A stretch of DNA of 64,000 nt from the IMG/VR virus record IMGVR_UViG_3300025141_000031; one strand, written 5' to 3'. The DNA comes from a virus. The notes under the pieces are model-generated. The model did no database searches. It saw only the letters and a program-made list of their open reading frames with translations, and was not told the DNA's origin. The translations under genes and the position numbers were made by a program. Each line of letters opens with the position of its first letter. Position 1 is the first letter of the stretch. Shown here one piece after another: positions 1 through 56,403 of the stretch.

Positions 1-1316
1 TCTTGCATAGTCTTTCCAGCTTTGATCTTAACTGGAAATTTATCATTTGTCATAGTATTTTTAATATCTAATATTAATTGTTTACCATCTTTAAGATTAA
101 AATCAAATAATAAAGAATCATATGTATATAAAATTAATTTAGTATCATATGGTCCTAATAATGCATTAACTTCATTTATCATGGCCATATTATATTCAGT
201 TTCCATACTCTGTAAATAATAATTAAATAATTTACTTGGATTCATATCAGACATTGCATTTCTAAATAACTTTCTTTTTAAAACAGCTGTTTCTATATAT
301 CCTTTAGATTGGAATTCTTTCCATAATTTATATGTAAAATCTCTTACCTTACCAAAGAATGGAATCTTTGCAAAATCTTTATCAACTCCACCATATAATA
401 ATCTAAACGAAATAGTTTTACTTTGTTCATATTCTTCTTTAGATAATTTATCCTTTCCGAAATATTGTTTACCTAGATATGTATGTACGGATGTTTCTGG
501 CAACTCATAATCAATAATATCTCCTATTAATCTTAAGTGATAAGAATCATAATCTAACTCTAATAACATACCATATTCATGTCTTGATATAAATGATTCT
601 CTAGAGCCGTCTTCTTTATTAATTGCCGCATAATTAACTCCTCCATGTTTATTAGAAGGTCGTCCTGTAGTTGTATAAATATTATATTCTGTATATGCTG
701 TTGCTCCTACTAGATTATTTGTTTGGAATTTTTCAACAAATTTTTCATAATCTACTTTTAATCCATTTCTTTCTATACCATATAAATTATCAATAAACAA
801 TTCATTATAATATTCAAATGATTCAGATTTCTTAAAGGTTGCAAATGATTCCATAAATTTATCTTTCATTCCATTACATCTTTCATAATGTTTAACTATT
901 GGAATATAATCATTTACATTAGTTTCATTATAATACCATTTATTGTACCAATCATGTGCATTTGTATCTGTATCTTCTAATTGTAACATTTTATTACTCT
1001 GAAAATATTCAACTAAATCTGCGTCAAATGTCTTATGATGGTAGAAATTTACAAAGCGTTTCTTACCCAAAACATAGATATCCGCCTTACTTGTAAACCT
1101 GTTTAGATGTTCGGATTCTAGGCATATGCAATCCTTATGACGGAAGGGTACTATGTATTCTTTTTTAGTATCAATTACATAAATATAAATAAAACTTATT
1201 TTATTATTTACGTAATGTCGATAAAAATCAGAAAATACTGGTATCCAAAAACTATCAGAAGTTTGTAATATTTGTTGTAATTCTTGTAACCTTGGTTTAT
1301 CTTCTACTATTTTCAT
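1..1316 (-). CDS. polA: DNA polymerase, family A (compact Pol I-like), 3' end runs off window
   Basis: Not in the ORF track; translated by hand from ATG at 1316 (MKIVEDKPRLQELQQ...), open for 438 codons to the window edge. Contains TTTGRPS, motif A LDYDSYHLRLI, motif B SKTISFRLLYG and motif C LYTYDSLLF. Confidence 0.9.
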   Translation of the reverse strand, partial: MKIVEDKPRLQELQQILQTSDSFWIPVFSDFYRHYVNNKISFIYIYVIDTKKEYIVPFRHKDCICLESEHLNRFTSKADIYVLGKKRFVNFYHHKTFDADLVEYFQSNKMLQLEDTDTNAHDWYNKWYYNETNVNDYIPIVKHYERCNGMKDKFMESFATFKKSESFEYYNELFIDNLYGIERNGLKVDYEKFVEKFQTNNLVGATAYTEYNIYTTTGRPSNKHGGVNYAAINKEDGSRESFISRHEYGMLLELDYDSYHLRLIGDIIDYELPETSVHTYLGKQYFGKDKLSKEEYEQSKTISFRLLYGGVDKDFAKIPFFGKVRDFTYKLWKEFQSKGYIETAVLKRKLFRNAMSDMNPSKLFNYYLQSMETEYNMAMINEVNALLGPYDTKLILYTYDSLLFDFNLKDGKQLILDIKNTMTNDKFPVKIKAGKTMQ

Positions 1317-1321
1317 TTATA

Positions 1322-1353
1322 TAATTATAATGAATTTTTTGCAAAGAACCAAA
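1322..1353 (-). promoter_or_regulatory. Class-2 (host-like) promoter upstream of polA
   Basis: Minus strand TTTG-N20-TATAAT. Same architecture and spacing upstream of bS21, terL and primase. ATG lies only 7 nt after the hexamer. Confidence 0.65.
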
Positions 1354-1375
1354 TTAATACCTAGGAGACTTCCGA

Positions 1376-2221
1376 TTAATCTGTATTTGCGTTTTTTGAC
1401 CTAGCTAATTGCATTACATATTGTCCTTTTGTCAATAATATATCTTGTACTACTTCTTTACTATGACGTTTTCCTCGCATTACTCCTAATGTAGGATGAA
1501 TATGATAATAACCTTTATAAGGAGTTCCATTTGATAATACAAATTCTGTACCATCTGTTAGTAAATTATTTCTTTGTACTCCTGCATTATTCTGGGATTT
1601 AATTTCGGGATATTCTGAATGTTTTACAAGGTCTCTTAATGCATCTGATAGTCCTGCCATTTCATAATTTTTTTGAAATACAGTTCTTCTATTAGAATCT
1701 TCTACTCCAGTTTCTTTTACTTTTGTTTTTGTTCCATCAGTATATTTATCTTTAAGTGGTCCTTTTATCTTCCACCTCAATGATAATTTATCATATAAAT
1801 ATCCATTAATATTTCTACCATCTTTTGCTTTAACTTCCTTAAATTGTTTTTGGTCTATCTCAATTACTGGTTTAGTTATATCATTTTTTTGTTTGATAAA
1901 ATATCTTATCATATATCCATTCTTATAATCATTTGGTCCTGGTCCTGGAAGTTTTGTTATAGGCGATTGAAATTCATATAAATTAATATTCGTTAACTGG
2001 TCGTATATTAATATATCTCTGTTATCAGCTATATAAAAATCTTTAAAAGGTTTTAAAACTTTAGAGGCATCATTTGGAGAAGCTCCTGTCATTACTAATT
2101 CATGGTCACCAAAATAATGGTACGGACCTATATAGTTTTTTAGGTCAAAGGTCATCCATGTATTACCTTTAGTGTAATGTCCGAAATGTCGTTGTCCTTT
2201 TGGGTAATATCTAGATGGCAT
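1376..2221 (-). CDS. Hypothetical protein at end of tail/baseplate operon, with duplicated T-x-G...Y-x-G-x-YH motif
   Basis: 281-aa ORF with GGAG SD, 1 nt from the upstream gene. N- and C-terminal segments resemble each other. Confidence 0.7.
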   Translation of the reverse strand: MPSRYYPKGQRHFGHYTKGNTWMTFDLKNYIGPYHYFGDHELVMTGASPNDASKVLKPFKDFYIADNRDILIYDQLTNINLYEFQSPITKLPGPGPNDYKNGYMIRYFIKQKNDITKPVIEIDQKQFKEVKAKDGRNINGYLYDKLSLRWKIKGPLKDKYTDGTKTKVKETGVEDSNRRTVFQKNYEMAGLSDALRDLVKHSEYPEIKSQNNAGVQRNNLLTDGTEFVLSNGTPYKGYYHIHPTLGVMRGKRHSKEVVQDILLTKGQYVMQLARSKNANTD

Positions 2222-55678: not shown

Positions 55679-55697
55679 AATTTATTATCCCTATTTA

Positions 55698-56372
55698 TTA
55701 CATAGCCTCTAAAGCTACTCCTGGTGTTGTTTCTAATTCTTGTTTTTCTATTGTCAAGTTAATAGTAACACTACCACCTGTTTCATTACCAACAACTGTT
55801 ATAGTTGCTGTTTTATCTTCGACTGGTTGAGCTTTTGCTATAATTTCAAATGACAATCCTTGTACCGTTACTGTTTGAGCTGCTTCGTTATCACCAATAA
55901 ATGCTGGTACTGTTGCTCCTGCTCCTGACCTACCTGTTCCTCTAGTTACTCTTATGTAGGCTGCATCTGAATCAGATAAAATTGCTGTATAGCCAAATGT
56001 TTGGTTTCCTCTATTAAAGTTTCTAGTATACGGTCTAATTGAAGCTGTACCACCACTTGATAATGTAATATTTTTATTCTGTACAGAAATTACAGGGATT
56101 CTAGTTGATCTAGATGGTAATGTAACTAACTTATATTTCATCATCTGTGTTTCGTCTGGTAATGCTTCTATTACCGGCATGTTCTCAATTACAACACCAT
56201 AATATGCTGTTCCAAGCGGATGATCTGGGTTCCATAAATCGTAATCTATTTCATCATCTGCAAGCGAAAATTGTGTTATTTTAAATTCGTCACGGCCCCT
56301 TGCTAATAATTGACGTCCTTTTTTTGTCAATATTGCGTCCACCGTAATTGAACTGTTATCTAAATATCCCAT
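55698..56372 (-). CDS. Virion structural protein (collar/baseplate type)
   Basis: MGYLDN..ITVDAILTKKGRQLLA...FKITQFSLADDEIDY followed by an Ig-like C-terminus. Confidence 0.75.
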   Translation of the reverse strand: MGYLDNSSITVDAILTKKGRQLLARGRDEFKITQFSLADDEIDYDLWNPDHPLGTAYYGVVIENMPVIEALPDETQMMKYKLVTLPSRSTRIPVISVQNKNITLSSGGTASIRPYTRNFNRGNQTFGYTAILSDSDAAYIRVTRGTGRSGAGATVPAFIGDNEAAQTVTVQGLSFEIIAKAQPVEDKTATITVVGNETGGSVTINLTIEKQELETTPGVALEAM

Positions 56373-56395
56373 AGTTAATTCCTCTTTATTTTTAA

Positions 56396-56403
56396 ATAAA
56401 TAT
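56396..56403 (-). promoter_or_regulatory. Class-1 (putative late) promoter motif ATATTTAT
   Basis: Upstream of the 224-aa structural gene. Confidence 0.6.

Follow-up and report, generated by a model that had tools for sequence, protein, structure and literature searches.

No other ribosomal protein turns up in phage genomes as often as bS21. Here we describe a bS21 gene carried on a 64,000-nucleotide (nt) stretch of viral DNA, IMG/VR record IMGVR_UViG_3300025141_000031 (the window, by which we mean this whole stretch), and its relationship to the Shine-Dalgarno sequences (SDs) that precede the late genes of the same phage. In Flavobacterium johnsoniae, bS21, bS18 and bS6 hold the 3' tail of 16S rRNA in a pocket in which Tyr54 of bS21 stacks on A1534, and ribosomes that lack bS21 or carry pocket mutations gain SD-dependent initiation and lose activity on SD-less mRNAs (PMC7797042, PMC9976891, PMC13000457). 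The form of bS21 that locks the anti-SD in Bacteroidia is recognized by Tyr54 (with Ile55) and by the weakly basic nature of its C-terminal part (Jha et al., PMC7797042). The arrangement that we propose below would resemble the autoregulation of rpsU in F. johnsoniae, which relies on this three-protein pocket and in which bS21 status decides whether an SD-led message is read (PMC7797042, PMC9976891, PMC13000457). There, ribosomes lacking bS21 read a single host gene whose SD spans 13 bp, whereas here dozens of phage genes carry SDs of 4–7 nt, and the additional bS21 is encoded by the virus and is itself SD-less.

Among viruses, the nearest precedent is the group of freshwater bS21-encoding myoviruses that Chen et al. 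assigned to Bacteroidetes hosts, with the proposal that phage bS21 substitutes for the host protein and that phage messages are preferentially translated (Chen et al., 2022, ISME Commun, PMC9723584). The likenesses are considerable: a large myovirus, bS21 in a head module that also holds terL, portal, protease and capsid, a tyrosine conserved in most members, and the idea that bS21 substitution favors phage late messages. In those clades, however, bS21 and the head genes are on opposite strands, and membership calls for terL to be more than about 70% similar, whereas bS21 of the window is on the same strand as its head genes. Chen et al. did not analyze the SDs of phage genes; in the present phages the use of SDs goes together with bS21, and the aromatic residue is missing from half of the relatives. 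Incorporation of a phage bS21 into bacterial ribosomes is known from Pelagibacter phage HTVC008M (Mizuno et al., 2019, cited in PMC9976891 and PMC9723584), which belongs to a different host lineage and for which no SD dichotomy is known to have been described. Exchange of bS21 variants also changes message preference among the paralogues of Francisella tularensis (PMC9578407, PMC12262407), a cellular system that is not known to be tied to a virus or to SD-blind ribosomes. McNutt et al. (2023) speculated on bS21 exchange by phages. Our full-text literature searches found no paper tying phage bS21 to SD-led late genes.

Two classes of gene start can be distinguished in the window, which holds 51 credible genes at 32% G+C, every one on the minus strand (as are all window features given below). 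The first class comprises genes for a family A DNA polymerase (polA; 3–1316, truncated at the window edge; PF00476, E = 1.6e-12), a DNA primase (50331–51254; phrog_47, E = 1e-36), the large terminase (terL; 34190–35773; PHROG terminase families, E = 3e-46) and bS21 (28323–28595; 90 amino acids (aa); PF01165). These share an upstream element, TT[TA]GG-N19-TATA[AT]T, which we call class B; it reads TTTGG-N19-TATAAT before polA (1324–1353), TTAGG-N19-TATATT before primase (51262–51291) and terL (35784–35813), and TTTGG-N19-TATATT before bS21 (28625–28654). The ATG follows the hexamer by 7 nt in polA and primase, 10 nt in terL and 29 nt in bS21. We regard all four genes as SD-less because the energies of their upstream anti-SD duplexes are positive, ranging from +1.3 to +2.2 kcal/mol (polA +2.2, primase +1.3, terL +2.0, bS21 +1.5). 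A first-pass annotation of this DNA had claimed as much, placing the four genes without SDs behind one promoter class and quoting the same spacings for polA, primase and terL, and these observations on the sequence are confirmed.

The second class lies behind a late motif, CATATTTATAT, which is found 12–65 nt before 17 starts (123 nt in the case of the scaffold gene). Counting a start as SD-led when the free energy (dG) of its anti-SD duplex is −5 kcal/mol or lower, 13 of these 17 are SD-led, versus none of the four class-B starts. The SDs that had been quoted for virion genes are all present, at spacings of 5–9 nt: TAAGGAG before the tail sheath (13673–15481; late motif at 15526); AAGGAG before the tail tube (13127–13615; late motif at 13647), the scaffold-like head gene (27068–28120; SD at 28128–28133, dG −8.8; late motif at 28243), the PhoH-like gene (51704–52372; late motif at 52412) and the gene at 15822; AGGGAG before the major capsid gene (25373–27046; phrog_138, E = 3e-72; SD at 27054–27059, dG −8.6); AGGAG before the prohead protease (29888–30490) and the gene at 18516; GAGGAG before the holin (35824–36240); and GAGGT before the baseplate hub. 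Some late genes lack one, among them the portal (32272–34158; late motif at 34182) and, as previously described, those at 17404, 25281 and 31028. Overall, an SD precedes 28 of the 51 starts but only 13.2% of 1641 other coding-strand ATGs (binomial p = 2e-12), and GGAG-type words concentrate at −13 to −10 relative to the start. Complementarity to the CCUCC core, a distance of 5–10 nt from the start and enrichment over background are thus all in evidence, as expected of true SDs.

To what extent this pattern accompanies bS21 can be read from approximately 230 related loci collected in three IMG/VR scans with capsid proteins, in which bS21 was detected with an iterated profile; 162 of them had enough flank and at least eight genes for SD fractions to be compared. 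The median fraction is 0.47 in the 94 loci with bS21 (10th percentile 0.33) and 0.06 in the 68 loci without it (90th percentile 0.16), and the capsid start itself carries an SD in 95 of 100 bS21 loci versus 0 of 68 bS21-free loci. The SD of the scaffold gene is kept in all bS21 relatives and is missing in the bS21-free locus L063, and terL is SD-less in all relatives examined. Base composition upstream of the starts tells the same story: only in bS21 loci does G rise to 33–40% at −11 to −8, with GGAG words enriched at least 8-fold, whereas bS21-free loci are A-rich, with 62% A at −3, a Bacteroidia-type pattern of the kind described for F. johnsoniae (PMC6847099). The first-pass annotation had named an unchanged SD pattern in bS21-lacking relatives as a refutation of its interpretation; SD frequency in them proved to be at background or lower, an outcome in favor of that interpretation.

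The rule survives its few apparent exceptions. In L052, bS21 is accompanied by a low SD fraction, yet the SDs of scaffold and capsid are kept. L199, a fragment estimated as 13% complete, lacks bS21 and has SDs in a single five-gene module. The genes of this module (L199:7371–14771, in a 21-kb sequence of the immuto-like clade introduced below) are coupled and their SDs are very strong, reaching −10.8 kcal/mol, whereas capsid and scaffold have none; the run may have been imported. Two other window genes, at 30501–31028 and 28656–29210, were considered as candidates for the switch and rejected; they are skewed in their distribution near the capsid, but are present in 4 of 22 and 8 of 22 bS21-free loci, respectively.

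The bS21 state has changed more than once. The capsid tree sets a large bS21-free clade that includes the Flavobacterium phage vB_FspM_immuto opposite a mostly bS21-positive clade, and four bS21-free groups are nested within the latter, each of them SD-poor next to SD-rich sisters. The best tree has five changes of bS21 state, of which well-supported branches force at least three, and SD use follows bS21 state at every change. A single bS21-free clade is rejected by the approximately unbiased (AU) test (p = 5.8e-7), the group in question having been named after the tree was seen.

Complete and near-complete genomes allow the comparison to be extended beyond the head module. We examined four genomes with bS21 and three without (immuto, G014 and G015, the last from a nested bS21-free group); the nearest relative record, G001, is a 19.5-kb fragment. 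The profile finds no bS21 anywhere in immuto, G014 or G015, and matches once in each of five positive controls. SDs precede 4–5% of starts genome-wide in the bS21-free genomes versus 17–26% in the complete bS21 genomes, where they concentrate on the large virion genes. Single-linkage clustering of the seven near-complete genomes gives 816 protein families, and bS21 is the sole family present in all four SD-using genomes and in none of the three SD-free ones. No bS18 or bS6 homologues are encoded in the bS21 genomes. Five families show the converse distribution, being present in all three bS21-free genomes and in none of the four with bS21 (G015 1073–1757 and 49114–49591, with counterparts in immuto and G014); one of them resembles, by eye, a metallophosphoesterase.

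The difference between the promoter classes, likewise anticipated by the first-pass annotation, is not peculiar to the window. Across five related bS21 genomes, 2 of 35 genes directly behind a class-B element are SD-led versus 53 of 130 behind a late motif (p = 3.5e-5), whereas late-motif genes of bS21-free genomes are SD-led in only 2 of 97 cases. Small genes of the bS21 genomes are at background SD frequency (9–21%). G009, the closest relative, repeats the class-B arrangement of the window gene for gene, including primase. When a late motif directly upstream is the only criterion, no significant SD difference is seen in G006 or G007; this is because many late genes sit inside operons, and the informative contrast is that between class-B and late-motif genes. 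Homology to window virion genes was also tried as a way of defining the classes and was discarded, giving a weak split in G007.

The short leaders of class-B genes are a separate matter. In F. johnsoniae, transcription starts 4–5 nt past an 8-nt −7 element; applied to polA and primase, this spacing would place the transcript start on the A of the ATG, and the hexamer–ATG geometry suggests that the primase mRNA may be leaderless. Approximately one-third of class-B genes have their ATG 6–9 nt after the hexamer, and the same is true in the bS21-free genome G015, which ties short leaders to the phage group rather than to bS21. The class-B elements are also unlike the primary-sigma promoter of Bacteroidia (TTTG/TAHHTTTG), in whose −7 element T-6 and G-5 are nearly invariant: they read TATATTAA, TATATTTT and TATAATTA, with G-5 in none and T-6 in the primase copy only. 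We therefore take them to be a promoter class of this phage group rather than the host consensus. The strict TAHHTTTG promoter is not enriched, not even in the Flavobacterium phage immuto, and the attempt to infer the host from it failed.

Based on these data, we propose that phage bS21 changes which messages host ribosomes can read. The SD-blind ribosomes of a Bacteroidia host would read the class-B messages (replication genes, terL and phage bS21 itself), which have no SD and a short leader or none. Phage bS21 would then enter host 30S subunits and make SD–anti-SD pairing usable, or at least tolerated, so that messages of the abundant virion and lysis genes, which lie behind CATATTTATAT and carry canonical GGAG-core SDs 7–8 nt before the ATG, would be favored. 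We infer the host, the incorporation, the release of the anti-SD and the timing, and we hold the proposal as a whole to be evenly balanced between right and wrong. As to which part of the protein might do this, a somewhat more tentative version, to which we lean a little less than evenly, is that an N-terminal extension (together with loss of the tyrosine in some clades) turns SD-blind Bacteroidia ribosomes into SD-reading ones, that SD-marked late messages outcompete those of the host, and that bS21 and the SDs were lost together several times.

The extension shows in the architecture of the proteins. Alone, the window bS21 passes the Pfam PF01165 cut-off of 27 only marginally, at 27.2 bits, and a tblastn search of GenBank phages with this single short sequence gave no match although phage Mel-JY01 encodes bS21, the query being too weak. 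A profile of 29 phage homologues, by contrast, matches 38 solved bS21 sequences; the best of these, at E = 2.9e-14 and 1.6e-13, include the bS21 of F. johnsoniae and a further chain that shares its tyrosine. In cellular bS21 the invariant lysine of the FKR motif is preceded by about 19 residues; in the phage proteins the median is 36–39, and in the window protein the number is 46, so that all these phage bS21 share an N-terminal extension of approximately 12–20 aa that departs from the cellular architecture. No solved bS21 aligns to profile positions 1–13, and most alignments begin at 18–23. Because the N-terminal helix of bS21 lies over the anti-SD, at the place where mRNA binds (Chen et al., 2022, PMC9723584), this extension is a candidate for the active part, and we suggest that it may be the working part of phage bS21. 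The window protein also has an insert of approximately 7–14 aa, depending on the relative aligned, at residues 23–36 (within TSKFTDKNGKTKTV), which is missing in the 75% identical relative L001.

Several observations weigh against the proposal. The first-pass annotation had suggested that phage bS21 remodels the anti-SD pocket, a step for which we find no support in the protein. Y81 and F82 of the window bS21 align with Tyr54 and Ile55 of F. johnsoniae bS21 (chain 7jil_z) and are followed by FQQINSQEE, a non-basic C-terminus, which together make up the Bacteroidia-type signature; by sequence it is the locking form and should lock the anti-SD like the host protein. Chen et al. (2022, PMC9723584) likewise read the conserved tyrosine as a sign of the same function as in the host, with phage bS21 blocking the anti-SD. 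Among the 94 related bS21 loci, the tyrosine position is Y/F in 46 and R/K in 46, and SD use and SD strength are alike in the two, so that no residue-level mechanism is identified. R-type phage bS21 aligns with E. coli-type bS21 through the basic tail and would not be expected to lock the 16S tail. When tyrosine-type and arginine-type phages were compared for SD strength, no meaningful difference emerged; as the window phage keeps the tyrosine, its loss is probably not the working part. The phylogenetically independent contrasts, though all in the same direction, number only 3–5, and a sign test on so few pairs cannot reach significance. Gene starts are the longest ATG frames, uncurated. In other clades a late-type motif stands upstream of bS21, and in one clade bS21 has a weak AAGGA site of its own. 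Finally, one cultured member of the group, phage Mel-JY01 (PP395634.1, our L082), has an R-type bS21 and an SD before 21 of 36 starts, and its recorded host is the cyanobacterium Microcystis elabens. Thus, of the bS21-driven switch first suggested for this DNA, the part that ties SD-led late genes to bS21 stands on a strong and specific association, bS21 being the only matching family among 816, whereas pocket remodeling finds no support in the sequence of the window protein; the interpretation as a whole is partly supported.

The lock-competent appearance of Y81/F82 lends weight to the alternative that survives best, although we consider it unlikely on balance: the SDs would be genuine, but their readers would be ribosomes devoid of bS21, either a natural pool or ribosomes stripped of it once host rpsU expression stops. 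Phage bS21 would then have some other role, such as supporting SD-less translation and upkeep of the mRNA exit channel, escape from rpsU feedback or countering defence, and would accompany SD use as a co-adapted partner instead of unlocking the anti-SD. bS21-free ribosomes of F. johnsoniae do gain SD-led initiation, and wild-type cells hold a sizeable bS21-free pool. The phage gene, being SD-less unlike host rpsU, would also escape the SD-dependent feedback on rpsU and stand outside that loop. If such ribosomes were available, however, bS21-free relatives could use SDs as well, yet their late genes are SD-led at the 2 of 97 noted above; and an extra lock-competent bS21 should lower SD reading rather than accompany it.

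A different host distribution is a less probable explanation still, and we regard it as rather doubtful. Here the bS21 clades would infect SD-reading hosts, such as cyanobacteria or non-Bacteroidia members of the Fibrobacteres–Chlorobi–Bacteroidetes (FCB) group, and the bS21-free clades SD-blind Bacteroidia, with bS21 as a passenger or serving another purpose. Mel-JY01, with its recorded Microcystis host, speaks in its favor, and the phage's bS21 resembles the E. coli type over the whole length including the basic tail; moreover, the Rhodothermus phage RM378 is a distant capsid relative, and the host of the window phage is assigned from leads other than clustered regularly interspaced short palindromic repeat (CRISPR) or culture evidence. 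This explanation, however, needs 3–5 jumps between SD-reading and SD-blind hosts among phages whose capsids are 60–65% identical. An SD-reading host would also not be expected to leave class-B genes (2 of 35) and small genes (9–21%) at background SD frequency, and the G+C of Mel-JY01 is 34%. We also note that Mel-JY01 has the head module of the group, with the late motif and this same G+C, at 4999–46615, and that two or three of its promoters, TTTGG-N19-TATATTTG, fit the Bacteroidia type exactly; its recorded host may deserve re-testing.

Some of the leads on the host of the window phage itself tell against that explanation too, and together the leads point to a probable host among Bacteroidia of the Flavobacteria type. 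In GenBank, the window comes closest to the 160-kb Flavobacterium phages vB_FspM_immuto, with one stretch of capsid DNA 79% identical. Flavobacterium is the host of immuto (MW353175), the nearest cultured relative that lacks bS21. Immuto has its virion module in common with the window, and the late motif and TTG...TATATT promoter architecture in common with the bS21 genomes as well; its capsid protein is 57% identical to that of the window. It differs in being bS21-free over its 160 kb, and has an SD before 3 of 45 annotated starts (4% genome-wide). To this may be added the tyrosine and non-basic tail of the window bS21, the place of F. johnsoniae bS21 among the best solved matches of the phage profile, and the SD-free class-B and small genes of the bS21 genomes.

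That the purine motif is instead some other signal on late mRNAs (bound by a phage protein, for instance, or acting in stability or processing) and merely resembles an SD is very improbable: the one point for it is the SD blindness expected of the presumed host, whereas the GGAG core complements CCUCC, the motif sits at the canonical spacing of −11 to −8, and it is found not only after promoters but also at internal starts that are translationally coupled.

Our proposal that phage bS21 makes SDs readable leaves the order of events less certain than the first-pass annotation supposed, which had the phage make its bS21 first. In the window, bS21 is a one-gene island, with its own class-B element upstream, kept in relatives L001–L014, and a 202-nt gap downstream (28121–28322) containing an AT-rich inverted repeat together with the next late motif; a terminator scan found no canonical terminator in 28121–28322. 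In many relatives the iterated profile places bS21 between the protease and scaffold genes, and 45 of 59 loci have a phage bS21 gene without an SD. Given the late-type motif or weak SD before bS21 elsewhere, 'made first' is not general and holds at most for the clade of the window. In several other clades the late-type motif, ATATTTATA, is followed directly by a G+C-rich hairpin, a T run and an SD-less start (L050:2520–2590, L053:3100–3170, L061:8450–8520, L070:8600–8666 and L073:900–970), a combination that resembles a terminator or attenuator placed right after the promoter.

The published proposal that phage bS21 substitutes for the host protein and favors phage messages names no feature of the message. 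The co-variation reported here supplies one, namely SDs on late genes in a host group that is blind to SDs, and makes the question accessible to reporter, deletion and cryo-electron microscopy work in the F. johnsoniae system. If our proposal is true, this would stand as a clear example from nature of a virus that alters the specificity of ribosomes through the exchange of a single protein; it would further account for the SD motifs in some Bacteroidia phages and affect gene calling and host prediction for abundant aquatic phages.

The window evidently covers the virion and replication genes of a T4-like myophage. Family searches identified terminase, portal, prohead protease, major capsid, head-tail adaptor, sheath, tube, baseplate hub, holin and endolysin, together with PhoH, an SbcC-like nuclease, an endonuclease, primase and family A polymerase; no tRNA genes were found in the 64 kb. 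Two late leaders deserve mention. A late gene of 108 aa (24955–25281) has its ATG 5 nt past the late motif CATATTTATATTAA (25281–25294) and no SD, and may be leaderless. The 123-nt leader of the scaffold gene, from the late motif at 28243 to the start at 28120, contains a 7-bp hairpin followed by a near-invariant TATTTCC (28150–28185). This hairpin is kept in 13 relatives, with compensatory changes in four pairs, and could be a processing, attenuation or protein-binding site.

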